A stretch of 59,770 bases of DNA, the filler included, from Myxococcota bacterium (GTDB lineage: Bacteria > Myxococcota > Myxococcia > Myxococcales > Myxococcaceae), in assembly GCA_049322255.1 (NCBI GenBank). It is 5 parts of 5 records of this genome, joined end to end, with 100 filler letters (N's around TTAATTAATTAA, not from the genome) between each part and the next. Parts side by side here need not be neighbours in the genome. Positions count along the whole stretch, not along the records: positions 1 to 12,411 come from JBMORE010000120.1; 4 more parts are not named here. One strand, 5' to 3'. The notes beneath the pieces were generated by a model. That model had not been told where the DNA came from and ran no database searches. It worked only from the letters and a program-made list of their open reading frames with translations. The position numbers and the translations under genes are program-made. Every line of letters starts with the position of its first letter. Within the stretch, counting starts at the first letter, position 1. Positions 1 to 48,466 of this stretch are shown piece by piece.

Positions 1-24
1 CATGCCCAAGACTCTACGCCTTCT

Positions 25-1215
25 CTACAGGGCGCGCTCGTACAGCCGGTACGTCTTGTACCTACGTGCCCCCATCGATTCGATGGCTCGGTTGATGAGC
101 TCGGCGTCCTCGGCGGTCCAGCCCAACTCGCCGCCGCTGTAGCCCAGCTCGCGCGCCGCCCGCATGGTGTCGAGGTAGAGCAGCGCGTCGATGCCCCGCT
201 TGCGGAAGCCCGGCTTGATGCCCAGAAGGAGGACCCGTAAGCGATCAATGCTCCGCGCCGCCCACAGCATGCGCGCCAGCCCGACGGGGAAGCCGAACTG
301 GGTGAGCCGACCGTTGGCCGCCTTGAGGGCGATGTTCGAGTCGGGGAGGGTGAGGGAGAAGGCGACTGGCTCGCCCTTCACCTCGGCGATGAGACAGAGC
401 TCGGGACGAATCTGCACCAGCGGGCGCAGCCGTGCGGCGATGGCGTCGAACTCCTCTTCGGTCATCGGCACGAAGCCCCAGCTGCGCTCGAGCATCGCGT
501 TGTAGATGCTCTTGATGCGGCGGATCTCCTCGGGGAGGTTCTTCATGTCCAGCGGGCGCACGCGCACGCCGTCTTGCTCGCGCACCTTCTCGGCGACGCG
601 CACCACCTTCTCCGGGGGCGCCACCGACGTCGACAGCTCGTACGCGTACAAGTCTTTCGCCTTGCGAAAGCCGTTCGCGGTGAAGAGCCGGTCGTAGTAG
701 GGAGGGTTGTACGGCATCATCATCGCCGGCGCGTGCGTAAAGCCCTCCACCAACACGCCCACGTCGTGGTTGAAGGACAAGTTTACTGGGCCGAGCAGCT
801 GCTTCATTCCCCGGCGCTTCACCCACTCGGCCGCCGCATCGAAGAGCGCCGCTGCCACGCCAGGGTCGTCGACCGCATCGAACATGCCGACGAAGCCTGT
901 CTCGGTGTTGTGGAACTGGTTGTACAGGGGGTCGTTGACGGCGGCGATGCGCCCGACCACCTGTCCTGCGCGCCTGGCCAAGAACAGCTCGAGCTCCACC
1001 CGGGCGAGGAAGGGGTTTTTGCCGCGATCCAAGAAGTCGCGCCGCTCGGCGATGATCGGCGGTACGTATTGGGGATCGCTTGAGAGCAGGTCGAGCTGAA
1101 ACTGGACGAAGGCATCGCGGTCGCGCCCGGTGCGCACCGGCTCGACCACCACGTCGATCGCAGCCACCGGTGGCGGGAGCGGAGGGACGACCGAGACCTG
1201 GGCAACGCTGCTCAT
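25..1215 (-). CDS. GNAT-fold N-acyltransferase, bacterial ceramide synthase (bCerS/YghO-like) paralog 2
   Basis: Start MSSVAQ at ATG 1215 overlaps the upstream stop (ATGA). Motifs VPP..ERRDFLD..KNP, VVGRIAA, GP, YNPPYY, WGFVP, GIKPGFRKRGID (acyl-CoA loop) and YKTYRLYE. Clear paralog of 2237-3415; lies in the operon with Spt. Confidence 0.75.
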   Translation of the reverse strand: MSSVAQVSVVPPLPPPVAAIDVVVEPVRTGRDRDAFVQFQLDLLSSDPQYVPPIIAERRDFLDRGKNPFLARVELELFLARRAGQVVGRIAAVNDPLYNQFHNTETGFVGMFDAVDDPGVAAALFDAAAEWVKRRGMKQLLGPVNLSFNHDVGVLVEGFTHAPAMMMPYNPPYYDRLFTANGFRKAKDLYAYELSTSVAPPEKVVRVAEKVREQDGVRVRPLDMKNLPEEIRRIKSIYNAMLERSWGFVPMTEEEFDAIAARLRPLVQIRPELCLIAEVKGEPVAFSLTLPDSNIALKAANGRLTQFGFPVGLARMLWAARSIDRLRVLLLGIKPGFRKRGIDALLYLDTMRAARELGYSGGELGWTAEDAELINRAIESMGARRYKTYRLYERAL

Positions 1216-2219
1216 CGAACGATCCCCTCCTGGCGGTACCAGGCAATGGTGTGGGCCATGCCACTCTGGAGCGTGTAGGCAGGGTCGAAGGCGATTTCGC
1301 TGCGGGCACGCTCGTTGGTGCAGGTCCACGCCTGCTCGCGCATCTCGCGCGCCTTGTCGAGGTTCATGATCGACACCCCCCCGCGCACGCGGGCGATCAC
1401 CTCTGAGGCCAGCCCCACCGCGTAAGTCGCGGCGTTGGGCAGCGGAATGGTGCGAGACCTTTCACGCCCCATCGACCGCGCCAGCGTGTCGCAGAACTCC
1501 GACCACGAGTACTCCTTGCCATCGCTGACGAAGTACACCCCAGCGGTCGAATCAGTGGGCACGAGGGTCTTCCCTTTCTCGCCGGCAGCGATCAGCGCGT
1601 CGCACAGATCTTCGACGTGGACCACCGAGTACGCCTTGGGCCCGAACGAAGGCTTCACGAAGATGCCGAGCTTGGCCATCGGTAGAAAAGAGGGAATGTT
1701 GTCGCGGTCTCCCGGCCCGTAGACGATCGGTGGCCGCAAGATGACCGCGGGGATGCGATCGGCGAACTGGCGCACCACCATCTCAGCGCCGAGCTTGCTC
1801 CGCCCGTAGCTCGACACCGGAGCGGGAGCATCAACCTCGCTGCGCGGACGGCCGACGATGGTCGGTCCCGCCGCCGCCAGCGAGCTGCAGTACACCAGCC
1901 GCACGGGCTTCTTCTGCTCGGCGATCGCCTGGCAGACAAACCGCGTGCCCTCGACGTTGCCGCGATGGAAGTCCTCCGGGGTTCGAGCCTTGAGCACTCC
2001 GGCGACGTGCTGCACGCAGTCGATCTCCTCCACCGCCTCCCGCAGGCCTTCGCCGGTGTGCAAGTCGCCGATGGCGAAGCGCAGACCCGGGATCTGCTCC
2101 AACGCCTTGCGGTTCGACGTCCGCCGCACCATCGCGGTCACGGTGTGCCCGCGCGCGACCAGGCGTTTGACCAAATTGCCGCCGACGAAGCCACTGGCTC
2201 CGGTGACCAAGACGTGCAT
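1212..2219 (-). CDS. Extended SDR / NAD(P)-dependent epimerase-dehydratase family; putative ceramide (3-oxo) reductase CerR-like
   Basis: MHVLVTGASGFVG Rossmann motif, SSLAAAGP, catalytic YGRSK, RPPIVYGPGD. Start ATG 2219 after a GGAGG SD. The specific function is inferred from its position between two bCerS-like genes and Spt. Confidence 0.7.
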   Translation of the reverse strand: MHVLVTGASGFVGGNLVKRLVARGHTVTAMVRRTSNRKALEQIPGLRFAIGDLHTGEGLREAVEEIDCVQHVAGVLKARTPEDFHRGNVEGTRFVCQAIAEQKKPVRLVYCSSLAAAGPTIVGRPRSEVDAPAPVSSYGRSKLGAEMVVRQFADRIPAVILRPPIVYGPGDRDNIPSFLPMAKLGIFVKPSFGPKAYSVVHVEDLCDALIAAGEKGKTLVPTDSTAGVYFVSDGKEYSWSEFCDTLARSMGRERSRTIPLPNAATYAVGLASEVIARVRGGVSIMNLDKAREMREQAWTCTNERARSEIAFDPAYTLQSGMAHTIAWYRQEGIVR

Positions 2220-2236
2220 GCCTTCGACCTCCTGCC

Positions 2237-3415
2237 TTACAGCGCCTTCTCGTAGAGCCGGTAGGTCTTGTACCTGCGGCCCCCCATCGACTCGATCGCC
2301 CGATTCACCAGGTGGTTGTCCTCGAGGGTCCAGGAGATCTCTCCGCCCGTGTACCCGAGCTCGCGCGCGGTCTTCAACGTGTCGAGGTACAAAATGGCGT
2401 CGATTCCACGTTTCCGAAACCCTTCCTTGATCCCTAAGGTGATGAGCCGCAGCCGTTTGATTTTCCGTGCCGCGAGCAAGAGCTTGAAAAGACCGATCGG
2501 CAACCCGAAGTGGGTGAGCCGACCGCCGGCAGCCTTGAGGGCGCAGTTGGCATCGGGGAGGGTCATGGAGAACGCCACCGGCTCGCCCTGCACCTCGGCG
2601 AGCAGGAGGAGCTTGGGCACCACCAGCTGCTTCATCTCCTTGGCCATGTGATCGAACTCGCGTTCGGTCATCGGCACGAAGCCCCAGTTCTTCTCCCAGG
2701 CGGCGTTGTAGATGTCTTTGATGCGCCGGACCTCGGCCTCGAAGTTCTTCATGTTCACCGGCCGCACCACCACGCCCTCGCGCTGGCGCATCTTTTCGGC
2801 GATACGCGCCACCTTCTCCGGAGGCGGCACCGAAGAGGAGAGCTCCCACGCCCACAAGTCCTTGGCCTTGGTGAACCCGCATGCCTCGTAGAGCCCAGGG
2901 TAGTAGCGCGGGTTGTAGGCCATCATCACCACCGGGGGAGCGTCGAACCCCTCGACCAACACCGAGCACTCGTAGTTGGTGGAGAAGCCGACCGGGCCCC
3001 ACAGGCGCGTGAAGCCCTGCGAGCGACACCAGGTGGCGGCGGCGTCGAAGAGGGCGCGGGCCACGCCGACGTCGTCGACGCACTCGAACATCCCGAAGCC
3101 GCCCAGCTGGGCCTGGTGGAATTCGTTGTACCGGGGGTCGTTGACGGCGGCGATGCGCCCCACCACCTGGCCGTTCCTTCGCGCCAAGAACAGCTCCACT
3201 TTGCCGAACTCGAACCAGGGGTTCTTCTTCGGGTCGAGGAAGTCTCTGCGCTCCATCACCAGGGGCGGCACCCAGTTGGGGTCGCTCCGGTAGAGGGAGT
3301 AGGGGAAGAGCACGAACGCATCGCGGTCGGCCGCCGACTGCACCGGGGTGACGGTGACGTCGGGGGCAAGCGCTGGCGACTCGGCGGGGGTCAGTTTCTT
3401 GGCGGGAGCGCCCAT
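2237..3415 (-). CDS. GNAT-fold N-acyltransferase, bacterial ceramide synthase (bCerS/YghO-like) paralog 1
   Basis: Start MGAPAK at ATG 3415, 5 nt after the Spt stop. Motifs LYRSDPNWVPPL, GRIAA, FGMFEC, YNPRYY, NWGFVP, GIKEGFRKRGID, EISWTLEDN and YKTYRLY. Confidence 0.78.
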   Translation of the reverse strand: MGAPAKKLTPAESPALAPDVTVTPVQSAADRDAFVLFPYSLYRSDPNWVPPLVMERRDFLDPKKNPWFEFGKVELFLARRNGQVVGRIAAVNDPRYNEFHQAQLGGFGMFECVDDVGVARALFDAAATWCRSQGFTRLWGPVGFSTNYECSVLVEGFDAPPVVMMAYNPRYYPGLYEACGFTKAKDLWAWELSSSVPPPEKVARIAEKMRQREGVVVRPVNMKNFEAEVRRIKDIYNAAWEKNWGFVPMTEREFDHMAKEMKQLVVPKLLLLAEVQGEPVAFSMTLPDANCALKAAGGRLTHFGLPIGLFKLLLAARKIKRLRLITLGIKEGFRKRGIDAILYLDTLKTARELGYTGGEISWTLEDNHLVNRAIESMGGRRYKTYRLYEKAL

Positions 3416-3420
3416 GTCCG

Positions 3421-4956
3421 TTACGCCTCCGGTTGCTTGCCGTTCTTCATGAAGAAGTTGGCGCCCTTCTCGAGAATCAACCCGGGAATCTCGGTGCGCT
3501 TTTCCCACAGACGAAGAGGCGCCGTGGACAGGCGCTTCAAATCTTCGGGCTGGAGGTTGGCCGCGCGCCAGGTGAGCGTCTCCACGGCGTCGAAGAGCTT
3601 GTTGGCGAGGTCCTTGGAGCTGAGCTTGGCGATGCTCTCCAAAGAGAGCCCACGGTCGGCGAGCAGCCCCGCCGAGGCCGCGGCCCAACGCTGCGAGGCC
3701 TGGTTGGAGATGACGTAGCTGCCCGGGCGGGCGATCTTCACCGGGGTGTACGAGGTCGGTCGGGTGGCGGGGATGATGTTCATCTTCCGCCCCAGCTTCT
3801 CGAAGGTCTCGAGCACCCGATCGAGCTGGTCGTCGGTGTGGGTGGCCATGTAGCTGGTGCGAAGGAGCGCGTGCCCCGGCTCCACCGCCGGCGGGATGAC
3901 CGGGTTGGCGAACACGCCGGCCTCGAAGAGCGCCTTCCAGAAGCGGAAGCACTTCACCTGGTCGCCCACCAGCACCGGCACCACCGGGGTCACCGAGACG
4001 CCGGTGTCGAAACCCATCGCCCGAAAGCCGTTGTGCATCTTCTCGGCGATGTCGAGCAGCCGGGCGCGGCGCTGCGGCTCGGCCTCGATGATCTCCAGCG
4101 CCTTGAGCGCCGAGGCCACTTGCGCCGGGGTCATCGACGCCGAGAACACCACCGAGCGCGCCTTGTGCTTGATGAAGTTGATGACGTCGAAGGGGCCACT
4201 GATGACTCCACCCAGCGAGGCGAAGCTCTTGGAGAAGGTGCCCATCACCAGTTGGGTCTGGGCCTCGAGGCCGAAGTACTCGGCGGTGCCGCGGCCGTGC
4301 TCGCCCAAGACGCCCATCGCGTGGGCGTCATCGGTCATCACCCGCGCGTTGTACTTCTGCGCCAGCTCGACGATCTTGGGCAGGTTGCACAGGTCGCCCT
4401 CCATCGAGAAGACGCCGTCGGTGACGATGATCTTCCCCGCCTCGGGGTCGGCGGCGGCCAGCAGCTTCTCCAGATGCTCCATGTCCTGGTGGCGGTAGCG
4501 CTTCTCCTCGCCGAAGGAGAGGCGCACCCCGTCGACCAGCGAGGCGTGGTTCTGCCGGTCGGAAAAGACGATGTCGTGGCGGCCCAAGAGCGCCGAGAGC
4601 GTCGCCAGGTTGGTCTGGAAGCCGGTGGAGACCACCAGCGCCGCCTCACGGTTCAAGAACTTGGCGAGCTTCGCCTCCAGCTCGTCGTGCATGGCCAAGG
4701 TGCCGTTGAGCAAGCGCGAGCCGGAGCAGGTGGAGCCGAAGCGCTTGATGGCGTTGATCGCCGCTTCCTTCACCCGCGGGTCGCCCGCCAGGCCCAGATA
4801 GTTGTTCGAGCCGACCATCACCACCCGGCGGCCCTCGATGTCGACCTCCGTCGAGCCGTGGGAGGCCTCGATGGGGCGGAAGTAAGGATAGAGGCCGGTG
4901 GCCTTGGCGATGCGGTAGTCCTTCCAGGAGCTGCACTTGTCGAACACGTCTGCCAT
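3421..4956 (-). CDS. spt: Serine palmitoyltransferase (AOS family, PLP-dependent class I/II) with ~115-aa C-terminal extension
   Basis: Start MADVFDKC at ATG 4956 with an AAGGGAGG SD. Motifs GLYPYF, GSNNYLGL, GSRLLNGT, NHASLVDG, DGVFSMEGD, DDAHAMG, PLP-lysine GTFSKS and PPAV. GTFSKS, GSRLLNGT and the neighbourhood fit Spt better than BioF/Kbl. Confidence 0.85.
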   Translation of the reverse strand: MADVFDKCSSWKDYRIAKATGLYPYFRPIEASHGSTEVDIEGRRVVMVGSNNYLGLAGDPRVKEAAINAIKRFGSTCSGSRLLNGTLAMHDELEAKLAKFLNREAALVVSTGFQTNLATLSALLGRHDIVFSDRQNHASLVDGVRLSFGEEKRYRHQDMEHLEKLLAAADPEAGKIIVTDGVFSMEGDLCNLPKIVELAQKYNARVMTDDAHAMGVLGEHGRGTAEYFGLEAQTQLVMGTFSKSFASLGGVISGPFDVINFIKHKARSVVFSASMTPAQVASALKALEIIEAEPQRRARLLDIAEKMHNGFRAMGFDTGVSVTPVVPVLVGDQVKCFRFWKALFEAGVFANPVIPPAVEPGHALLRTSYMATHTDDQLDRVLETFEKLGRKMNIIPATRPTSYTPVKIARPGSYVISNQASQRWAAASAGLLADRGLSLESIAKLSSKDLANKLFDAVETLTWRAANLQPEDLKRLSTAPLRLWEKRTEIPGLILEKGANFFMKNGKQPEA

Positions 4957-4985
4957 ACGAGTGGGCCCTCCCTTGGGCGGGCGCT

Positions 4986-5015
4986 CTTGTAGAGATTGGT
5001 AAGGGAGAAAGTCAA
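4986..5015 (-). promoter_or_regulatory. Possible sigma70-type promoter of the spt operon
   Basis: Minus strand TTGACT-N18-TACAAG, about 30 nt upstream of the spt ATG; the -10 box is imperfect. Confidence 0.35.
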
Positions 5016-5071
5016 GCCAGGGGCCGACCCGGAATGTGACGACTTCGTGAATGATGTTGAACACTTAAGAG

Positions 5072-5120
5072 TGAGCTAAATTTTGCTCAGTTGTAGGTGT
5101 GTCGAGCCATTTTTGGCTCA
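5072..5120. promoter_or_regulatory. Two tandem 18-bp palindromic sites, putative transcription-factor operators
   Basis: TGAGCTAAATTTTGCTCA (5072-5089) and CGAGCCATTTTTGGCTCA (5103-5120), 31 bp apart, in the AT-rich divergent intergenic region. Confidence 0.6.
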
Positions 5121-5193
5121 TGTTATTCCCTGCCGCCGTCCCCTTTCCGCCCTGGGCAGACGTCGCCATCTTTGGCGCGAGCTTGGGAGAGCC

Positions 5194-6168
5194 ATGCCGA
5201 GGGAAACGGGGTTGCCGTTGCGGCTTACGGACGTGGTGGTGATGTCGATGGGGGCGCTGGCGGTGGCCTGTCTCCTCGTCGTCGCACGCTGGACGCCAGG
5301 GGCGATGGCCTCGATCTTCGCCTTCAGCCTCATCGCCGCTGGCCCGCTGGTGTTCCGAGCGCTCGCCCGACGGTTTCCGAAGCACGGCGTGTTCGACCTC
5401 ATCGCCTCCTTCTGGCTGCTCCCGGCGGCGGTGGTCGGGCACACCTTCGTCGGTCCGCTCGCCGACGCCGTGCACCCGGCGCTGTTCGATCGCCACTTGG
5501 CGTACGCCGACGCGAGGCTCTTCGGGGTGCAGCCGGCGGTCTGGTTGGAGGCGCGCGTGCCTCCGGGCCTCGTCGAGGTCCTGCTCGTTTGCTACTACAC
5601 CTACTTTCTGTGGCCGTTGTTGCTCGGGCTCGTTCTCTACTTTGGCCAAAAGGACAGGCGCCTCTTCGAGCAGTACGTGCTGGCGCTCGCCTTGGGGTAC
5701 TCGGCCAACTTCGTTCTTTACGCGCTGGTTCCGGCGGTGGGGCCGCGCTTCTTTCTCGCCGGCGAATTCAATGAGCCCCTGCGCGGCCTATGGCTGACCC
5801 CCTGGCTGGACTCCGTGATGCGGCTGCCCAGGTTCACGCGCGATTGCTTCCCTTCGGGCCATACGGCGACCACCCTCACCGTGCTCTTTTTTGCCTATCG
5901 GCGCGCCCGCCGCTTCTTTTGGGTGATGTTTCCTTTTGCGGTGGGGCTCATCGGCGCCACGGTGGTCGGCCGCTTTCATTATGCGGTAGACCTGCTCGCC
6001 GCGCTGCCCCTCGTCTTGTGGGCCGTCACCACCGCCGTCGTCCTTTCCCGCGTCCGGCCCAAAGGGGTGCTCGTCACCCCGTCGCCTCGGCTGGCAACCC
6101 TGTGGCGGGAAGGGATTGTTGTCGCTCGACGGTTCGGTGACTTGACGCCGCGTCGGCCGGGCGCCTAG
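5194..6168 (+). CDS. PAP2-superfamily integral membrane enzyme, Aur1/inositol-phosphorylceramide-synthase-like (PAP2_3)
   Basis: Multiple TM segments; YxxYF, P.VGPRF, RDCFPSGHTA and HYAVDLL motifs. ATG 5194 follows GGGAGA. Divergent from spt. Confidence 0.75.
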   Translation: MPRETGLPLRLTDVVVMSMGALAVACLLVVARWTPGAMASIFAFSLIAAGPLVFRALARRFPKHGVFDLIASFWLLPAAVVGHTFVGPLADAVHPALFDRHLAYADARLFGVQPAVWLEARVPPGLVEVLLVCYYTYFLWPLLLGLVLYFGQKDRRLFEQYVLALALGYSANFVLYALVPAVGPRFFLAGEFNEPLRGLWLTPWLDSVMRLPRFTRDCFPSGHTATTLTVLFFAYRRARRFFWVMFPFAVGLIGATVVGRFHYAVDLLAALPLVLWAVTTAVVLSRVRPKGVLVTPSPRLATLWREGIVVARRFGDLTPRRPGA

Positions 6169-6171
6169 GTT
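6142..6171 (+). promoter_or_regulatory. Putative sigma70-type promoter of rpsA
   Basis: TTGACG-N18-TAGGTT about 120 nt upstream of rpsA, overlapping the PAP2 stop. Confidence 0.45.
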
Positions 6172-6294
6172 GCGCGCCTTTCGCGGCCCTTTGGGTGGGG
6201 CTGCGAGCGAGCTCGACAGCGTCAATCCCCGCGCCAAGGCTCAAATTTCACTTGGGGAGCAGTCGTTGTTTTTTCTCTAAGGACCAACCACCAC

Positions 6295-8007
6295 ATGCAG
6301 CAGAACGTGAACCAGGAAGTCGGGATGGAGGCGGAGGAAGACTTCGCTTCGATGTTTGAGGCTTCGCTCAAGGAGCGGGGCGGCGATGGGCTCCTCAAGG
6401 AAGGGGAGATCATCAAGGGCACCGTGGTTCAGGTGACCAAGGACTACGCCGTCGTCGACATCGGCTACAAGTCAGAGGGGCAGATCCCGATCACCGAGTT
6501 CACCAGCGCGCGTGGAGAGATCACCGTCAAGGCCGGGGACAGCATCGACGTGCTCCTCGAGAGCCGGGAGAACGACACCGGCATGGTCGTCCTCTCCAAG
6601 GAGAAGGCCGACAAGATGCGCATCTGGGACGAGATCAGCGCGGCCTGCGAGCGCGACGAGATCGTCAAGGGCACCATCGTCGGTCGCGTCAAGGGCGGCC
6701 TCTCGGTGGACATTGGAGTGAAGGCGTTTCTCCCTGGTTCGCAGGTGGACATCCGCCCGGTGCGCAACCTCGACCAGTACATCGCCAAAGAGTTCGAGTT
6801 CAAAGTCATCAAGTTCAACAAGAAGCGCGGCAACATCGTGCTCTCCCGCCGCGTTCTCCTAGAGAAGCAGCGCGAGGAGATGAAGAAGGAGACCTTGAAG
6901 AACCTGCGCGAAGGCGCGGTGCTCAAGGGCGTGGTCAAGAACCTCACCGACTACGGCGCCTTCATCGACTTGGGCGGCATCGACGGGCTTTTGCACATCA
7001 CCGACATGAGCTGGGGCCGCATCGGCCACCCCTCCGAGATGTTCAACGTAGGCGACGAGCTACGCGTGGTGGTGCTCAAGTTCGACTCCACGGCTGAGCG
7101 CGTCTCCTTGGGGCTCAAGCAGATTCAAGAAGACCCCTGGCACCGCGCCGACGAGAAGTACCCGGTCGGCACCCGGGTCAAGGGCAAGGTGGTCAGCCTC
7201 ACCGACTACGGCGCCTTCATCGAGATCGAGCAGGGCGTCGAGGGGCTGGTGCACGTCTCCGAAATGTCGTGGACCAAGCGCGTCAAGCACCCCTCCAAGG
7301 TGCTCGAGGTGGGCAAGGAGGTCGAGGCGGTGGTGCTCGACATCGACCCCAAGGCCAAGCGCATCGCCCTGGGGATGAAGCAGATCGAGCAGAACCCCTG
7401 GACCCTGCTCGAGGACAAGTACCCCATCGGCTCGGTCATCAAGGGCCAGGTGCGCAACGTCACCGACTTCGGCGTCTTCGTCGGCGTCGAGGAGGGCGTC
7501 GACGGCCTGGTGCACGTCTCGGACATCAGCTGGACCCAGCGGGTCAAGCACCCGGGGGAGATCTACAAGAAGGGCGACGAGGTGGAGGCGGTGGTGCTCA
7601 ACATCGACGTCGAGAACGAGCGCTTCTCCTTGGGCATCAAGCAGCTGCAACAAGACCCCTGGGAGACCATCTCCGAGCGCACCCCGGTGGGTAGCCGCGC
7701 CAAGGGCAAGGTCACCAAGGTCACCGACTTCGGCGCGTTCGTGGAGATCGAGCCGGGCATCGAGGGCCTGGTGCACGTCTCCGAGATCAAGGAGGAGCGG
7801 GTGGAGAACCCCCGCGACGTCCTCAACGAGGGTCAGGAGGTCGAGGTGAAGATCATCGACATCAACACCACTGACCGCAAAGTGGCCCTCTCGATGAAGG
7901 CGTTGCTCCACGAGGGGGAGGACGACTACCGCGAGTACTTGCGCAAGCAGGCAGAAGGGTCGAAGGCCCGCCTGGGCGACGTGATGGGCAACAAGCTCAA
8001 GAAGTAG
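6295..8007 (+). CDS. rpsA: 30S ribosomal protein S1
   Basis: Six S1 repeats (TDYGAF/TDFGVF...GLLH/GLVH.S/T), GYKSEG, AFLPGSQVD. Confidence 0.98.
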   Translation: MQQNVNQEVGMEAEEDFASMFEASLKERGGDGLLKEGEIIKGTVVQVTKDYAVVDIGYKSEGQIPITEFTSARGEITVKAGDSIDVLLESRENDTGMVVLSKEKADKMRIWDEISAACERDEIVKGTIVGRVKGGLSVDIGVKAFLPGSQVDIRPVRNLDQYIAKEFEFKVIKFNKKRGNIVLSRRVLLEKQREEMKKETLKNLREGAVLKGVVKNLTDYGAFIDLGGIDGLLHITDMSWGRIGHPSEMFNVGDELRVVVLKFDSTAERVSLGLKQIQEDPWHRADEKYPVGTRVKGKVVSLTDYGAFIEIEQGVEGLVHVSEMSWTKRVKHPSKVLEVGKEVEAVVLDIDPKAKRIALGMKQIEQNPWTLLEDKYPIGSVIKGQVRNVTDFGVFVGVEEGVDGLVHVSDISWTQRVKHPGEIYKKGDEVEAVVLNIDVENERFSLGIKQLQQDPWETISERTPVGSRAKGKVTKVTDFGAFVEIEPGIEGLVHVSEIKEERVENPRDVLNEGQEVEVKIIDINTTDRKVALSMKALLHEGEDDYREYLRKQAEGSKARLGDVMGNKLKK

Positions 8008-8030
8008 ACGCCGTCGATAGAAGCTTTTGA

Positions 8031-8070
8031 AGCGGGCAGGTGGGAAAGCTCCCTCCTGCCCGTTTTCTTT
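8031..8070 (+). terminator. Rho-independent terminator after rpsA
   Basis: CGGGCAGG...CCTGCCCG stem followed by TTTTCTTT. Confidence 0.75.
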
Positions 8071-8154
8071 GGGCGGGCGAGCAGCCTTGACCCTCCACCT
8101 GTTTGCCGGGATAAGGCGGGCTCGATTGGTTAGGGCTTGTCGAAGGAGGCCGCC

Positions 8155-9336
8155 GTGGCGCGAGAAGTCGTCATCGTAGGAGCAGCGCGCACCCCCGTCG
8201 GTGCATTTTTGGGAGCGCTGTCGGCGTTGAGCGCTCCACAGCTCGGAGCAGCGGCGATCAAGGCCGCGCTCGAGCGCGCCGGCGTCGCTCCCAAAACGGT
8301 CGACGAGGTGCTGATGGGTTGCGTGCTCCAGGCGGGCATCGGACAGGCGCCCGCGCGGCAGGCGGCCATCTTCGCCGGGCTGCCCGACAGCGTGCCTTGC
8401 GTGACGGTGAACAAGGTGTGTGGCTCGGGGCTCAAGTCGATCATCCAGGGTGCACAGGCGATCGCCCTGGGCGACGCCGACGTCGTCGTCGCCGGGGGCA
8501 TGGAGTCGATGAGCAACGCCCCCTACCTCTCTCACGCGCTCCGCGGTGGGGCGCGCATGGGCCACACCGAATTCAAAGACGCGATGGTCCACGACGGGCT
8601 GTGGGACGTCTACGGTCAGGTGCACATGGGCAGCTGCGCCGAAAAGTGCGCCGCCGAGTACAAAATCTCCCGTTCCGCGCAAGACGAGTACGCCGTCGAA
8701 TCGACCCGGCGGGCGCAGAAGGCGGTGGCCGAGGGAGCGTTCAAGGCAGAGATCGCCGCCGTCAGCGTGCCCCAGAAGAAGGGCGACCCGCTGGTGGTGA
8801 CCGAAGACGAAGGGCCCAAGAGCGCCAAACCCGACAAGCTTCCTTCCCTCAAGCCGGTGTTTCAAAAGGACGGCACGGTGACCGCGGGAAATTCCTCGTC
8901 GATCAACGACGGCGCGGCGGCGGTGGTGCTGATGAGCGCTGAGCGCGCGAAGGCGGAAGGCAAGGCGGTGCTGGGCCGGGTGGTCGGGTACGCCGGCGCT
9001 GCGCGCAAACCCTCCGAGTTCACCGTGGCACCCGCCGACGCGATCAACAACCTGATGGCGAAGACCCAACTGAAGACCTCGGACGTCGACCTGTGGGAGA
9101 TCAACGAAGCCTTCGCGGTGGTGGCGATCGCCAACAACCGCCTGCTCGAGCTCGACCCGGCGAAGGTGAACGTGCGCGGCGGCGCGGTGGGCGGGCTGGG
9201 GCACCCGATCGGCTCTTCGGGCGCGCGCCTGTTGGTGACGCTGCTCCACACCATGAAGGACCTGGGCAAGAAGCGCGGAGTGGTTTCGCTGTGCATCGGC
9301 GGCGGCGAAGGCATTGCCCTCTTGGTCGAGCGCTGA
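8155..9336 (+). CDS. atoB: Acetyl-CoA C-acetyltransferase (thiolase)
   Basis: GTG start after an AAGGAGG SD; NKVCGSG (active Cys), [26 protein letters not shown]. Confidence 0.93.
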
Positions 9337-9340
9337 TTCA

Positions 9341-9373
9341 CCCCTCTCCCCGTGGGAGAGGGTAAGGGTGAGG
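9341..9373 (+). repeat. 33-bp REP-like intergenic palindromic repeat, copy 1
   Basis: CCCCTCTCCCCGTGGGAGAGGGTAAGGGTGAGG with hairpin CCCTCTCCC/GGGAGAGGG; identical copy at 41956-41988. Confidence 0.85.
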
Positions 9374-9383
9374 GACCAAATTC

Positions 9384-10082
9384 ATGAACAAATTAGTCCC
9401 GACGATAGACGAAGCGATTCGCGACATCACAGACGGCGCCGTCATCATGAGCGGCGGCTTCGGGCTGTGCGGCAACCCCGAGCACCTCATCGCCGCCCTC
9501 CACCGAAAAGGGGTGAAGAACCTCACCCTCATCTCCAACAACTGCGGCACCACCGAGCTCGGCCTGGGCATTCTGCTCAAGTCACGCCAGGTGAAGAAGA
9601 TGGTGTCCAGCTACGTGGGAGAGAACAAGGAGTTCGAACGCCAGTTCCTCGCGGGCGAGCTGGAGGTCGAGCTCAACCCTCAAGGGACGCTGGCGGAGCG
9701 CATTCGCGCCGGCGGGTGCGGGCTCGGCGGCTTCTTCACCCCCACCGGTGTCGGCACCCAAGTAGCCCAAGGGAAGGAGACCCGGGTCATCGACGGCCGC
9801 GAGTACGTGCTCGAGCGACCACTCGAGGCCGACTTCGCCCTCGTGCGCGCTTGGAAGGGCGACCGCTGGGGAAACCTCGTCTTCCGCAAGACGGCGCGCA
9901 ACTTCTCACCGCTGATGTGCATGGCGGCGAAGGTGACCATCGCCGAGGTGGAGCACCTGGTGGAGGTGGGCGAGCTCGACCCCGACCAGGTGCACGTGCC
10001 GTCGATCTTCGTCAAGCGGGTGGTGAAGGGCGGCAAGTACGAGAAGTGGATCGAGAAACGCACCGTGCGGCCAAGGAGCTAA
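9384..10082 (+). CDS. scoA: 3-oxoacid CoA-transferase subunit A
   Basis: [42 protein letters not shown]. Confidence 0.95.
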
Positions 10083-10087
10083 AGCGC

Positions 10088-10744
10088 ATGCCCCTGACTC
10101 GAGAGCAGATCGCCCAGCGCGTCGCCCAAGACTTGCGCGACGGCTACTACGTCAACCTAGGCATCGGCATGCCCACCCTGGTGGCCAACTACATTCCCCA
10201 GGGCGCGGAGGTGCTCTTGCACTCCGAGAACGGGCTTTTGGGCATCGGCCCCTGGCCGGCGGAGGGCGAGGAGGACCCAGACCTCATCAACGCCGGCAAG
10301 GAGACGGTCACCGCCATCGCCGGTGCGGCGTACTTCGATTCGGCGCAATCCTTCGCGATGATCCGGGGTGGCCACGTGGACATGGCGGTGCTCGGCGCGA
10401 TGGAGGTCTCGGCTCAGGGTGACCTCGCCAACTGGATGATTCCGGGGAAGATGGTGAAGGGCATGGGCGGCGCGATGGACCTCGCGGTGGGCGCCAAGCG
10501 CGTCTACGTGATGATGGAGCACGCCACCAAGGACGGGAAACCGAAGATCTTGAATCAGTGCGCGCTTCCGCTCACCGGCAAGAAGTGCGTGCACCACATC
10601 GTTTCCGACTTGGCGGTCATCGACGTGACGCCCGAGGGGCTGTTGCTTCGCGAGGTCGCGCCGGGGGTGAGCCCCGCCGAGGTGCAAACGCTCACCCAGC
10701 CCAAGCTACGCGTCAGCCCGGAGCTCAGGGAGATGCGCTTTTAG
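10088..10744 (+). CDS. scoB: 3-oxoacid CoA-transferase subunit B
   Basis: [13 protein letters not shown] (catalytic Glu), [20 protein letters not shown]. Confidence 0.95.
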
Positions 10745-10802
10745 AAGAACGGTGTCATAGTCCCGGCCCGTCTTTGGCTCGACGCGGAGGCTGTCGGAAC
10801 CC

Positions 10803-11189
10803 ATGGCAGAGAAGTTGGACAAGTATAAGAAGGCGCGCCGCGCCGATCGCCTCCAGCACGAGCTTCTGGTCGCCTACCGCACCGTCGACGGCTTCATCAC
10901 CGATTGGGCGGTGAACATCTCGCGCGGGGGCCTCTTCATCAACACGCGCAACCCGCTCGCGGTGGGCACCACCGTGCGCCTCATCATCTCCCTGCCCGAC
11001 ACCGCCTTCCCCTTCGACCTCTCCGGCCGCGTCACCCGCGTCAGCGAGTACGACAACCCCGCCAACCAGGTGCCTGGAATGGGCATCGAGTTCATCGACG
11101 TTGACGAAGAGAAGCGCGCCCGGATCGAGCGGTTCGTCGAGCGACTCCGCAAGGAGCTGCCCGAGCCGGGCCCCTTGCCGAAGAAGTAG
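10803..11189 (+). CDS. PilZ-domain protein (myxobacterial TIGR02266 type)
   Basis: RRADR (RxxxR), NISRGGLFI and GMGIEF. Confidence 0.85.
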   Translation: MAEKLDKYKKARRADRLQHELLVAYRTVDGFITDWAVNISRGGLFINTRNPLAVGTTVRLIISLPDTAFPFDLSGRVTRVSEYDNPANQVPGMGIEFIDVDEEKRARIERFVERLRKELPEPGPLPKK

Positions 11190-11192
11190 CGT

Positions 11193-12411
11193 TTGCCCGA
11201 GGCCGAGCTGCGAATCGAGAGACTCTCCATGCTGGGGGAGGGCGTTGCCCACCTCGATGGGCGCACGGTCTTCGTCGAGGGCGCTCTGCCCGGCGAGCGG
11301 GTGTGCGCCGAGGTTTCGGAGCACGGCAAGGTTCTGCGCGGAGAGCTGTTGGACATTCTCGAGCAGAGCCCGGCCCGCCGCGCCCCTGCCTGCCCGCTCG
11401 CTGCTTCTTGCGGGGGGTGCGACTGGCTGCACGCGGACGAGCGACTCCAGCGTGAGGCGAAGGAGGAGATCGTCCTCTCGGCGCTGGAGCACCTGGCGGG
11501 CATCTCGCGTCAGAGGGTCGAACGTTTGCCGACGGTGGTGTCACCGCGCTCGATGGCTTACCGGCGGCGGGCGGTGCTGCACGTGCAAGGCAAGACACTC
11601 GGCTTCTTCGGGAAGAAGAGCCACGCCCACGTCGACGTGCCTGCCTGCCCCGCCTTGACCGAGCCGCTTTCGATGCTCCCGGGCAGGCTGGGACCGTTGG
11701 TGGCGGCGATGGCCAAAGACTTGGAGTCGGTGACGTTGATCGCGGAAGGAACGCAGGTGAGCCTGGCGTTGCACCTGTCGGGGCCCGTGAAGGCGCGGCA
11801 CCTCGAGCTGACCGAGAGCGCGGTGCGGGCGTTGAAGCTGTCGGGTGCAGTCCTGGTGCCCAAGACTGCCTCGCCGCGGCTGGTGAAAAGCCCGGTGCTG
11901 AGGTCGACTTCGCCCCTTTCGCCAAAGGTGCCGATGTACTCGCGGCCCGATGCCTTCGTGCAGGCGAACGCCGAGGCGAACGTGGCGCTGGTGACCTCGG
12001 CCGTCGTCGCGCTCGGTGCCAAGGAGCACGACCGGGTGCTCGAGCTGTACTGCGGCCAGGGAAATTTCACCTTCGCCATCGCCGGCACGGCCGCCTCGGT
12101 GCTGGCGGTGGAGTCGTCGGGCGTTTCGCTGGAGCTGGCGCGGCGAAGCGCACAGGAGGGGAGGGTGGACAACGTTCGTTTCGTGCAAGGGGAGGCGGCG
12201 AAGGTGGTGAAGGGGCTTTTCGCGGAAGGGGCGCGCTTCGACCTCTTGCTTGCCGACCCACCGCGCGCCGGAGCGCCGGGCCTCTCCCACTGGGCGCGGA
12301 TGCTCGGAGCGCGTCGGGTCGTCTACGTGGCGTGCGATCCGGCGGCGCTCGCCCGCGACGCCCGCGAGCTTCGGGTCGCGGGCTTTCGGCCCCACACGCT
12401 CCAAATCGTCG
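11193..12411 (+). CDS. TRAM-domain RNA (uracil-5)-methyltransferase, RlmD/TrmA family (3' end cut by contig end)
   Basis: GALPGE, CPLAASCGGC Fe-S motif, FVQAN, ELYCGQGNF, DPPRAG, YVACDP; runs into the linker. Confidence 0.88.
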
Positions 12412-12511
12412 NNNNNNNNNNNNNNNNNNNNNNNNNNNNNNNNNNNNNNNNNNNNTTAATTAATTAANNNNNNNNNNNNNNNNNNNNNNNNNNNNNNNNN
12501 NNNNNNNNNNN
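12412..12511. other. Artificial contig linker
   Basis: N44-TTAATTAATTAA-N44 (stops in all six frames). Confidence 0.99.
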
Positions 12512-13081: not shown

Positions 13082-14215
13082 ATGCTTCGTTTTCGCCGGG
13101 GTCTTGCAGCTCTCGTTGCCGTTGCCGCGTGTGGCTCGCCCACGGTTCCTCAGGCCGGGGATGCGACCGGCGGTGACGGTGGCGACGAGCTCGATGCAGG
13201 CGTTGACGCCGGAATGGGTGGAGGCTCCGGCCAGGGCGAGTGCCAGGGGCAGATCGTCGACGGCGGAACGGGGTGGGTGCCACTCATCGACATGGTCGGC
13301 TGCACCTACCGGGGTTTTGCAGGAGGGCTTTATCCAAACGGATCGAGCTCGATGCCGTCTTCACACCTCGCCGAGGGTGTCTCGCGCGCGAAGGCCATCG
13401 TTCCTTTGGATGTAGACGGCGGCGCCAGCACATCGGGGAAATACGTGTTGCTGTCGATCGGCATGTCGAACACGACGCAGGAGTTCTGCTCGCGCAGCTC
13501 CAACCTGCCGTGCAACCCCTGGACGTTCATGGGGCAGGCCGCAGCTGACACGGCGGTGAACGCCACGACGCTGGCCATCGTGAACGGTGCGCAAGGCGGG
13601 AAAGCGGCGGCGTTTTGGGACTCGCCGACCGACCCCGACTACGACCGTGTTCGAGACACCAAGCTGACTCCCCAGGGACTGACCGAGAAGCAGGTCGTCG
13701 CGGTGTGGATAAAGGTCGCCAACCCCTCTCCGACGAACGCGCTCCCCTCTGCCCAAGCCGACGCCTACACCTTGGTGCGCCAGGTGGGAGACATCTTGCG
13801 CGCAGCCAAGGTCCGCTACCCCAATCTTCGGCTCGCCTACCTATCGAATCGAATCTTTGCGGGTTACGCCGTCTCCCAACTCAACCCGGAGCCCTACGCC
13901 TACGAATCGGGGCTGGCGATGAAGTGGGTCGTCGAAGCTCAGATCAACCAAATGGCCGGAGGCACCGCCGATGCCCGCGCCGGAAATCTGAGCTACGCCA
14001 CGGTGGCCCCCTGGGTCGCCTGGGGCCCTTACTTGTGGGCCGACGGGCCAACGCCGAACAGTCAGGGGCTGTTCTTCACGCACGCGGATCTCGAGCTCGA
14101 TGGCACGCACCCTTCTTCATCTGGCGAGAACAAGGTGGCCGCGTTGCTGCTGAGCTTCTTCAAGAGCTCGCCGACGACGAAGTGCTGGTTCGTCACACAA
14201 GGCAGCTGCCCTTAG
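13082..14215 (+). CDS. Lipoprotein with probable SGNH/GDSL-like hydrolase domain
   Basis: Lipobox VAAC, DAG/DGG linker, SIGMSN (block I-like), NGAQGG (block II-like) and DGTHPS (DxxH block V). Confidence 0.65.
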   Translation: MLRFRRGLAALVAVAACGSPTVPQAGDATGGDGGDELDAGVDAGMGGGSGQGECQGQIVDGGTGWVPLIDMVGCTYRGFAGGLYPNGSSSMPSSHLAEGVSRAKAIVPLDVDGGASTSGKYVLLSIGMSNTTQEFCSRSSNLPCNPWTFMGQAAADTAVNATTLAIVNGAQGGKAAAFWDSPTDPDYDRVRDTKLTPQGLTEKQVVAVWIKVANPSPTNALPSAQADAYTLVRQVGDILRAAKVRYPNLRLAYLSNRIFAGYAVSQLNPEPYAYESGLAMKWVVEAQINQMAGGTADARAGNLSYATVAPWVAWGPYLWADGPTPNSQGLFFTHADLELDGTHPSSSGENKVAALLLSFFKSSPTTKCWFVTQGSCP

Positions 14216-14229
14216 CGAAAGGAGCCTCG

Positions 14230-15741
14230 ATGCGCCGTCGAGCTTTGAGCCACTGGATGCCGGCAGGGGTCGGCTTGCTTGCAGTCGCCGCCACGAGCTG
14301 CCATTGCGGAGGCACCCTCCGCCGCGTCGATGCGGCCGTCACCGTGGAGCCAACGGAGCTCGACTTCGGCACGCTCCGAGTGGGTGCGGTGAAGCGCTTG
14401 GCGCTCACTGTGCGCAACGAGGGCGTGGTGACGGTGCGCCTGCAAGAGCCGTTCATCTCCGAAGACGTGCGGGGCGCCTTCACCGTCGGAACGGTACCGG
14501 GCTCATTGCTTCCCGGAACCAACGTGACGATAGACGTCACCTACTTCGCGCCCACCGAGGAGGGCGCGGACACGGCGTTTCTCACCGTTGCCAGCGATGG
14601 CGACCCGGCCGAGCACCGCATACTGCTTCGCGGCCAGGCCGTGGCTGCGTGCCCCAAAGGCCTCCTGGAGTGCGCGGGCCAGTGTGTCGACCCTCTTTCC
14701 GATGTTGCGCACTGCGGGGGCTGTGACCGCGCCTGCGTCGCTACCCAAACCTGCCTCGATGGTCGATGCCGCTGCCAACCGATGGGCTGCGGAGACCTGG
14801 GCAAGCAGTGTGGCTCCTGGCCCGATGGTTGTGGGGGGACCGTGGAATGCGGCGGCTGCGTTGCCCCGCGAGCCTGCGCTGCTTCGGGCCAGTGCGAGGG
14901 TGGCAACGTCGGTCGACTGTTCATGACGAATTTTTTGGACAGCGTCGTTCGAGTCTCGGTGGACCAGGGGGTGACCTGGACGACGGTGGGTCGATACAGC
15001 AACCGTGGGCCCAGCTTCGGCACGATGGTGATGGACCCCACCGGTCGCTTGTACGTCGCCGAGTCGAGCGCGACTGCGGGGAACGTCTACCGCTCGGAGG
15101 ACAACGGGGCCAGTTGGAGCCTGGCGGCCTCGGTGCCGAACGCCCCCGGTGCAACAGTCATCGCGTCGGATCCTCGCGGCTGTCTCTACCTGACCGGCTC
15201 GGGCGGCGACGTGTTTACTTCGGCCGACCACGGGAGCTCCTGGAGGCAGGTTGGGAACTGGGGCCAGTCTGGTTTCAAGGTTGCCATGAGCAGCGATGCG
15301 TCGGGGCGGCTGTTCTTGGCCGAAGCTGCGTGGGGAGGAGGCAGGGTCTTCTTGTCCACGGACCAGGGCAGAACGTGGTCACTCCAGGGGGCGGTGGCCA
15401 AGACGGGAAACAACGCGGCGACCATCGCCAGCCTTTCTGGAGCTCGCCTCGTCGGTCTGCAGGGAGGCCTCCCGGCGCACATCTTTGTCAGCACGGACAC
15501 GGGGATGAGCTGGTCGCAGATCGGCTCGATTCCCGACAGCATTCAACGGATGACGGCCACCGCCACCGACGAGCTCTACACCGTTTCCAACAACTCCAGC
15601 GTACTTCGGGTGTTCCGCTCCGGCGACCACGGCGTCAGCTGGACGCAGCAGTCGGCCTTCTCCAATGGAACGGCCGGTGGGGGATGGGCGGATATTGCGG
15701 CAGACTACCCCTTCGCTCCGCTCGCCGAGCCATGCAGATGA
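14230..15741 (+). CDS. Secreted/lipoprotein: ASH/choice-of-anchor-D Ig-like domain + Cys-rich repeats + Asp-box (BNR) beta-propeller
   Basis: Signal ending ATSCHC; VEPTELDFG...LTVRNEG; CVDPLSDVAHCGGC and CGSWPDGCGGTVECG; six SxDxGxxW boxes. Confidence 0.75.
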   Translation: MRRRALSHWMPAGVGLLAVAATSCHCGGTLRRVDAAVTVEPTELDFGTLRVGAVKRLALTVRNEGVVTVRLQEPFISEDVRGAFTVGTVPGSLLPGTNVTIDVTYFAPTEEGADTAFLTVASDGDPAEHRILLRGQAVAACPKGLLECAGQCVDPLSDVAHCGGCDRACVATQTCLDGRCRCQPMGCGDLGKQCGSWPDGCGGTVECGGCVAPRACAASGQCEGGNVGRLFMTNFLDSVVRVSVDQGVTWTTVGRYSNRGPSFGTMVMDPTGRLYVAESSATAGNVYRSEDNGASWSLAASVPNAPGATVIASDPRGCLYLTGSGGDVFTSADHGSSWRQVGNWGQSGFKVAMSSDASGRLFLAEAAWGGGRVFLSTDQGRTWSLQGAVAKTGNNAATIASLSGARLVGLQGGLPAHIFVSTDTGMSWSQIGSIPDSIQRMTATATDELYTVSNNSSVLRVFRSGDHGVSWTQQSAFSNGTAGGGWADIAADYPFAPLAEPCR

Positions 15742-15818
15742 GCTCGCTGGTGAAGTGAGCCCGTCGTCCATCGCGCCTTGGGCTTTCGGTCGGCCAGGAA
15801 GACGGGCATGGTCTTACG

Positions 15819-24862: not shown

Positions 24863-24962
24863 NNNNNNNNNNNNNNNNNNNNNNNNNNNNNNNNNNNNNN
24901 NNNNNNTTAATTAATTAANNNNNNNNNNNNNNNNNNNNNNNNNNNNNNNNNNNNNNNNNNNN
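24863..24962. other. Artificial contig linker
   Basis: N44-TTAATTAATTAA-N44. Confidence 0.99.
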
Positions 24963-36623: not shown

Positions 36624-36723
36624 NNNNNNNNNNNNNNNNNNNNNNNNNNNNNNNNNNNNNNNNNNNNTTAATTAATTAANNNNNNNNNNNNNNNNNNNNN
36701 NNNNNNNNNNNNNNNNNNNNNNN
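36624..36723. other. Artificial contig linker
   Basis: N44-TTAATTAATTAA-N44. Confidence 0.99.
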
Positions 36724-48366: not shown

Positions 48367-48466
48367 NNNNNNNNNNNNNNNNNNNNNNNNNNNNNNNNNN
48401 NNNNNNNNNNTTAATTAATTAANNNNNNNNNNNNNNNNNNNNNNNNNNNNNNNNNNNNNNNNNNNN
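48367..48466. other. Artificial contig linker
   Basis: N44-TTAATTAATTAA-N44. Confidence 0.99.

Follow-up and report, generated by a model that had tools for sequence, protein, structure and literature searches.

In Caulobacter crescentus, ceramide synthesis involves the serine palmitoyltransferase Spt (CC_1162), the ceramide synthase bCerS or CerS (CC_1154) and the reductase CerR (CC_1164), together with AcpR (CC_1163) and AasR (CC_1165) (PMC9386255, PMC11324152, PMC11087976). It has been argued that acylation precedes reduction, with a periplasmic, membrane-associated CerR (PMC11087976). In Escherichia coli, YghO is 44% identical to CC_1154 and an epimerase is 34% identical to CC_1164 according to the supplement of PMC9386255, and the roles of both proteins are only predicted (PMC9386255). 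Among the myxobacteria, Myxococcus xanthus is named as a carrier of the Bacteroidetes-type SPT (PMC9386255), and ceramide phosphoinositol has been cited for it (PMC9246714). The three core enzyme families of Caulobacter and of the E. coli BL21 cluster are also encoded at the locus reported here, which occupies positions 25-6168 of a window of 59,770 nucleotides (the whole stretch of DNA analyzed) from a Myxococcota bacterium of the family Myxococcaceae (GCA_049322255.1). Judged from its sequence, this locus likely makes dihydroceramide-type lipids by the Spt-bCerS-CerR route and likely transfers a phospho-head group to them.

The locus consists of four close-packed genes on the minus strand and one divergent gene on the plus strand. 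The minus-strand genes are spt (3421-4956, 511 aa), encoding a serine palmitoyltransferase-like alpha-oxoamine synthase of the Bacteroidota/delta type; bCerS1 (GNAT1; 2237-3415, 392 aa), encoding a tandem-GNAT acyltransferase of the conserved type within the YghO/bCerS family; cerR (1212-2219, 335 aa), encoding an extended short-chain dehydrogenase/reductase (SDR) with an N-terminal Rossmann motif and an intact YxxxK; and bCerS2 (GNAT2; 25-1215, 396 aa), encoding a diverged bCerS paralogue. They are separated by 5 nt (3416-3420), by 17 nt (2220-2236) and by an ATGA overlap (1212-1215). The plus-strand gene PAP2 (5194-6168, 324 aa) encodes a candidate PAP2_3 (Aur1-like) membrane phosphotransferase with seven hydrophobic segments. 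This layout is as given in a preliminary description of the DNA. The five proteins fall into the Pfam families Aminotran_1_2, GNAT, Epimerase/3Beta_HSD and PAP2_3, and the GC content of third codon positions is 0.85-0.94 across all five frames. In the proposed route, Spt would catalyze the condensation of serine and a long acyl thioester to 3-ketosphinganine, and acyl-CoA is the probable donor because neither AcpR nor AasR is encoded at the locus (the best AasR-like match, 27% identical, lies on another contig). bCerS1 would N-acylate the long-chain base, with reduction of the 3-keto group by the SDR either before or after this acylation. PAP2 would place a phospho-head group on the ceramide, taken from a glycerophospholipid that is likely phosphatidylethanolamine (PE) or phosphatidylglycerol (PG) rather than phosphatidylinositol (PI), and bCerS2 would yield additional lipid species. 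Apart from AcpR and AasR, the locus differs from that of Caulobacter in its Bacteroidota/delta-type Spt with a C-terminal tail, its two bCerS genes, its Aur1-like PAP2 gene and an SDR that lacks a signal-like segment, whereas the Caulobacter CerR is periplasmic.

The best match of the window Spt among PDB sequences is the SPT of Sphingobacterium multivorum (409 bits); the next match reaches 307 bits, Kbl 253 bits and BioF approximately 200-213 bits. Its best NCBIfam model is SerpalmtaseCFB (NF047600), with 512 bits versus 407 and 388 bits for other models. The catalytic set of H137, D209, H212, the pyridoxal phosphate (PLP) lysine K243 and R366 is intact and aligned with that of the S. multivorum enzyme, whose structures 8guh and 3a2b head the Foldseek results for the Spt model (TM-score 0.93 to 8guh, 49% identity in the structural alignment). 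That enzyme differs in being approximately 399 aa long and in lacking the tail. These comparisons support a predicted enzyme of the Spt type, closer to Spt than to BioF, Kbl or ALAS. For bCerS and CerR, the E. coli BL21 cluster (ECD_02850-02854) was used for comparison in place of the Caulobacter enzymes. bCerS1 is 34% identical to YghO over 378 aa (E 4e-80), and bCerS2 is likewise 34% identical over its full length (E 1e-75), with the CoA-binding segment intact; they are the sole YghO matches in the genome, and a third GNAT match proved to be an assembly overlap. The fold was modeled for bCerS1, which forms a confident tandem GNAT structure (pLDDT 91), and a PDB search with the bCerS profile returned weak GNAT matches only, with no direct relative. 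The closest relatives of bCerS1 in the named genomes are from Myxococcaceae/Myxococcales, at 80-84% identity, and the window genome is accordingly assigned to Myxococcaceae. The cerR product and the E. coli homologue ECD_02852 are reciprocal best matches (113 versus 64 bits in the window genome; in the reverse search of the E. coli chromosome, E 1e-24 versus 2e-12 for the next protein), and both begin with the Rossmann strand, the window protein having no hydrophobic N-terminal signal-like segment. The SDR is thus supported as a predicted CerR of the CC_1164 type. Homology, reciprocal matches, trees and synteny agree with the identities that had been proposed for Spt, both bCerS copies and CerR. 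The expectation that routine annotation would miss the pathway also held, given that many homologues of the Spt are named 8-amino-7-oxononanoate synthase and that no NCBIfam model matches either GNAT.

Synteny was counted over 79 loci from named genomes, which are kin and not independent of one another. bCerS1 is immediately preceded by an spt-type gene in 65 of the 68 loci with room for it (two of these copies are lysine-less). cerR directly follows bCerS1 in 42 of 72 loci, and among the same 72, bCerS2 is present in 30 and an MlaC gene in 42. Of 55 loci with room upstream, 41 have a PAP2 gene there on the opposite strand and 32 an MMPL gene. The four-gene order is found in 24 of the 79 loci and the exact five-gene layout in four. 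This arrangement is not due to chance. The core of the locus is present in M. xanthus AM003 (L080), where the order is PAP2-MMPL / spt-bCerS-cerR / MlaC-TolC. The spt (77% identity, tail included), bCerS (68%), cerR (55%) and opposite-strand PAP2 (51%) genes follow the same order there, with an aldolase downstream. M. xanthus differs in having a single bCerS at the locus, MMPL, MlaC and TolC flanks, and a myo-inositol-1-phosphate synthase (MIPS); the window genome has bCerS2 in addition, only distant (23-29%) MMPL, MlaC and TolC homologues elsewhere, and no MIPS that we could find. In most cultured Myxococcaceae, the ceramide genes have MMPL-family, MlaC-like and TolC-like genes on their flanks (for example, L080:3561-5957 and 10281-12198), and the distant triads of the window genome lie on other contigs (L119, L120). 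We consider the MMPL, MlaC and TolC proteins to be candidate ceramide exporters.

The PAP2 protein scores 46.7 bits against Pfam PAP2_3 (cut-off 27), and the start codon ATG at 5194 is preferred over TTG at 5083 because of its ribosome-binding site and the third-position GC of only 0.54 in the extension. Transferases of the Aur1/SMS type have a His-His-Asp set and lack the C1 K-x6-RP motif of lipid phosphatases. The catalytic residues H223, H262 and D266 are invariant in 27 of 27 aligned rows, and K-x6-RP occurs in none of them. By motif and topology the protein is therefore likely an Aur1-like transferase candidate rather than a lipid phosphatase; in the ESM Atlas, it matched PAP2_3 clusters only. 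In the window genome, which is 99.6% complete, no match to the MIPS families PF01658 and PF07994 was found, although the controls matched. Three genes for CDP-alcohol phosphatidyltransferases are present, two of which read as PgsA-like and PssA-like. Because no MIPS was found, the donor is likely PE or PG and not PI, so that PAP2 would more likely move a PE- or PG-derived head group than inositol. PAP2 is also linked to ceramide genes in the Acidobacteriota, where one locus (L109) has SDR, PAP2, GNAT and Spt genes in a row on one strand. Among 150 genomes of that phylum (G161 was left out), bCerS occurs in 22 of the 39 with a PAP2 match versus 21 of the 111 without.

The second acyltransferase, bCerS2, is 64% identical to bCerS1. 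In a tree of 135 rows, the 40 bCerS2 rows, which come entirely from Myxococcaceae, group in a single clade (SH-aLRT 100), and a sister grouping of the two window copies was rejected by the approximately unbiased (AU) test (p-AU 3e-56). Therefore, the duplication is old. At least two bCerS matches (matches, not copy numbers) were found in 67 of 121 family genomes; the locus has a single bCerS in the cultured genera named, Myxococcus, Corallococcus, Archangium and Cystobacter. Residues were counted in bCerS1 numbering, leaving out a frameshifted bCerS2 (L105) and two distant proteins (L030, L031). W240, N243 and L364 are fixed in all 93 bCerS1 and outgroup rows, and S361 is present in 90 of them. 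In the 39 bCerS2 rows, W240 is replaced mostly by Leu or Met, N243 by a mixture of residues, L364 by Thr or Ala, and S361 by Gly without exception (39/39). W240, N243, L364 and N367, which are invariant in single-copy members of the family, are kept by bCerS1 and not by the window bCerS2; the bCerS2 rows have fixed residues of their own (G365 in 39/39). In the bCerS1 model, the changed positions follow the helix 222-239 and lie on the strand 357-364 of the second GNAT domain; in GNAT proteins, these parts of the fold form the walls of the acceptor and acyl sites. The dN/dS values of eight pairs were 0.04-0.24 for bCerS2 and 0.03-0.20 for bCerS1 by the Nei-Gojobori method, estimates that are subject to GC bias. 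The bCerS2 paralogue of Myxococcaceae is old and has evolved under purifying selection. Most likely it is enzymatically active as a second acyltransferase whose substrate range has shifted to another acyl chain or to a reduced or salvaged base.

Several observations weigh against the pathway as we read it. The Spt score of 512 bits lies below the SerpalmtaseCFB cut-off of 640 bits, as does that of the M. xanthus copy (508 bits), and we have therefore filed the enzyme as a delta-type Spt relative and not as a member of NF047600. The references for bCerS and CerR were E. coli homologues of predicted role instead of the Caulobacter enzymes, the CerR is only 30% identical to its E. coli counterpart, and 30 of 72 loci have no cerR adjacent to bCerS1. 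The PAP2 profile gave no match to PDB sequences up to E 1; five genomes that have an intact spt (G010, G014, G018, G024 and G030) yielded no PAP2 orthologue, which indicates that PAP2 is accessory; and PAP2 lies beside bCerS in only three of the 22 Acidobacteriota genomes with both. In addition, the window bCerS2 has Ala at the position of the invariant Asn367 of bCerS1, which calls for caution in reading it as an active enzyme. If the PLP enzyme were a BioF or Kbl among unrelated housekeeping genes, the name 8-amino-7-oxononanoate synthase given to its homologues in databases would be explained. However, a separate Kbl (667 bits) and BioF (451 bits), both over their cut-offs, are encoded on other contigs of the genome, the linkage with bCerS is conserved, and the comparison with BioF and Kbl by model and phylogeny that the preliminary description had proposed favored Spt: a clade of the window Spt with BioF/Kbl-type rows was rejected in an AU test of 32 rows (p-AU 0.0005). 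This alternative is effectively refuted. That the genes make a non-serine amino-lipid instead of ceramide (for example, a 1-deoxy, cysteate or other N-acyl aminoketone lipid) would agree with the score below the curated cut-off and with the matches of cysteate-C-acyltransferases to Spt in the PDB search (230-239 bits), and the substrate of an oxoamine synthase is unreadable from its sequence. Considering the structural agreement with the S. multivorum SPT and the 77% identity to the copy of M. xanthus, a reported ceramide producer, we regard such a product as very unlikely.

The head group and the role of bCerS2 each admit a further explanation. Yeast Aur1 and BT_1522, the Aur1 homologue within an inositol-lipid cluster of Bacteroides thetaiotaomicron (PMC9246714), resemble the window protein in their PAP2_3 family, the His-His-Asp set and the lack of K-x6-RP, a resemblance judged by general motif definitions. 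M. xanthus, for which ceramide phosphoinositol is reported (PMC9246714), has MIPS. A true inositol-phosphoceramide synthase would fit these likenesses, with inositol imported or made by an unrecognized route. However, the lack of a MIPS match in the window genome, where no inositol pathway was found, points to a different donor, and a presence of PAP2 that tracks MIPS is ruled out, MIPS occurring in five of the 15 genomes with a PAP2 orthologue versus 15 of 31 overall. We therefore consider this explanation unlikely, and of the earlier proposal of an Aur1/IPC-synthase-like enzyme, the Aur1-like part is retained by motif and topology and the IPC synthase part is not. With regard to bCerS2, the loss of W240, N243, S361 and L364, to which the window copy adds Asn367, would suit a non-catalytic or weakly active partner of bCerS1 in a heterodimer or as a regulator, and the two usually travel together, even to the polyketide locus described below. 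By contrast, bCerS2 occurs apart from a bCerS1 orthologue in two genomes. In G005, on a single contig, it lies beside the polyketide locus; in G016 (95% complete), PAP2, cerR and bCerS2 share one contig (L026) from which spt and bCerS1 are gone. No Spt or polyketide fusion was found in G016, its two oxoamine synthases being Kbl and BioF, and the salvage of sphingoid bases is possible there. These cases, together with the fixed residues and the CoA-binding segment of bCerS2, make a mere partner improbable and favor the second acyltransferase.

The window Spt continues beyond its catalytic domain into a tail of approximately 115 residues (residues 398-511; 3421-3765, minus strand) that matches no Pfam family, and no domain match was found past residue 384. 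In the structure model, an arm at 398-430 is ordered and the helices at 447-504 are of low confidence (pLDDT approximately 45); a conserved motif lies around residues 455-467. A profile of the tail matched 116 of the 121 family genomes, with a single match per genome in 115 of the 116. In the phylum, it matched 26 of 121 genomes, none of them outside Myxococcales. Every protein it matched was of the Spt or pseudo-Spt type or a fragment. An Spt of 61% identity that lacks a tail match occurs in two genomes outside the order, and catalysis is therefore probably independent of the tail. Against 1.84 billion representatives, the profile gave 41 matches. Of the 13 long ones that were aligned or scanned, 12 were degenerate oxoamine synthases that have neither the PLP lysine nor the catalytic histidines and keep the core motif of the tail. 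The ESM Atlas yielded no usable match for the tail. We consider the tail likely to be a non-catalytic docking or regulatory element.

Degenerate copies that retain the tail are found in a sister clade, with pseudo-Spt genes at L121:7601-8941, L122:7905-9236, L123:7460-8695, L124:8314-9552 and L125:7565-8794. The best tree places their descent from Spt (support 95/98), and gene order also favors this origin, the L121 and L123 copies still adjoining MlaC, TolC and aldolase genes and the L121 copy also MMPL; an alternative clade of pseudo-Spt with the oxoamine domains of polyketide synthases (PKS) was not rejected (AU test, p 0.17). The Spt proteins of L025, L060, L145 and L146, at approximately 59% identity, have also lost the PLP lysine, and those of L025 and L060 still precede bCerS genes; we regard these four as an earlier stage of degeneration. 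A PKS-fused oxoamine synthase at least 66% identical to that of G009 is carried by 36 of the 37 family genomes in which the tail match is weak (the catalytic residues of pseudo-Spt were read directly in only four of these 37) and by four further genomes, two with lysine-less Spt and two without a tail match. In six genomes whose tail matches are strong, only a relative at 48-58% identity is present. The fusion is a single KS-AT-KR-DH-AOS module with intact catalytic motifs, adjoining an acyl-AMP ligase and an acyl carrier protein (ACP), and the bCerS pair or bCerS2 stands alongside in four loci read. In L131-L135 (G013, G009, G004, G005 and G011), the ligase, ACP and fusion genes, accompanied in some by a desaturase, diverge from the bCerS pair; L132 has a CMAS-family methyltransferase after the fusion, and in L136 (G025), from another family, the fusion lies beside an SDR. 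These loci are candidates for a polyketide route to a sphingoid-like base. We regard the switch from Spt to a dead Spt with a PKS fusion as essentially one evolutionary event, and a slow decay of a redundant gene may instead account for the dead copies. No dead Spt copy and no PKS fusion were found in the window genome.

The eukaryotic SPT subunit LCB1/SPTLC1 has no PLP lysine. The pseudo-Spt of the sister clade resembles it in this loss, which extends to the catalytic histidines, but it replaces the active Spt instead of pairing with it, and the window Spt is intact. Because there is one tail match per genome in nearly all cases, pseudo-Spt does not form a pair of the LCB1/LCB2 type. The tail as a mark of an LCB1/LCB2-like heterodimer in the window genome was also considered and rejected, no degenerate paralogue being present there. 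Tentatively, the Spt of Myxococcales may be a protein of two functions, in which the tail organizes or regulates ceramide synthesis or export. The sister clade would then have kept a dead Spt for this purpose while a line of fatty-acyl ligase, ACP, PKS and oxoamine synthase would have replaced it in making the sphingoid base and would feed the same bCerS1 and bCerS2, and bCerS2 would have a new specificity in chain, O-acylation or salvage of prey bases. This possibility is a speculative one, which we think more apt to fail than to hold.

The host genome is 4.85 Mb in size with 66% GC, and of the window only positions 1-12411 form one contig. Paired N-runs around a 12-base spacer at 12412-12511, 24863-24962, 36624-36723 and 48367-48466 are joins of separate contigs, and gene neighborhoods across them are therefore not real. 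Between spt and PAP2, 237 nt of lower GC content (56%; 4957-5193) presumably form a bidirectional promoter region; no sigma-70 consensus promoter was found in 4900-6400. Positions 6295-12411 encode, by eye, what we take to be housekeeping-like proteins: ribosomal protein S1, a thiolase, CoA-transferase subunits, a PilZ-like protein and an RNA methyltransferase. The window begins 24 nt past the bCerS2 stop codon, and a second contig of the same genome (L034) overlaps that end by 127 nt. L034 continues with an open reading frame of 193 aa (15233-15814), which starts approximately 21 nt after the bCerS2 stop with a signal-like sequence and no Pfam match, followed by a class I aldolase gene (14214-15356). 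Relatives also have both of these genes downstream of the locus, and the two may be co-transcribed with the ceramide genes. A contig from one DNA run, possibly the source of the assembly, crosses the junction with fewer than 31 letters on one side and is thus no independent bridge; among the sequencing runs listed, no RNA run was found. On another contig (C140, L035), a multi-domain AMP-binding/ACP/acyltransferase protein is followed by an SDR, a pair that we take to resemble the myxobacterial ether-lipid genes elbD and elbE.

The preliminary description named this the best candidate in the window for an under-described system, which overstates the case: the core is the known and published Spt-bCerS-CerR pathway, Myxococcota are already known producers, and the same locus occurs in M. 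xanthus. The diverged bCerS2 and the Spt tail were absent from that description, and these two features are what is new here, with the switch between dead Spt and PKS in relatives as a lead worth following. In the literature on Myxococcus and myxobacterial sphingolipids, bCerS and CerR, and oxoamine-synthase PKS, a coverage that left out most subscription papers, we found no duplicated bCerS, Spt tail, bacterial pseudo-Spt or PKS locus of this kind; the supplement of PMC11334938 may already list spt, bCerS and cerR sets of Myxococcota. Ceramide transporters were still unidentified according to PMC11087976. The locus points to genes that can be tested in M. xanthus, a relative amenable to genetics, including a candidate head-group transferase, candidate exporters and a deletable Spt tail. 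The changed residues of bCerS2 point to the substrate pocket of a family that has no solved structure in the copy of PDB searched. If the two-function view of Spt is true, the sister clade would be an example of a pseudo-SPT in bacteria and of membrane sphingolipids made by a polyketide route, and the switch itself indicates that counts of spt genes misjudge which bacteria are sphingolipid producers.

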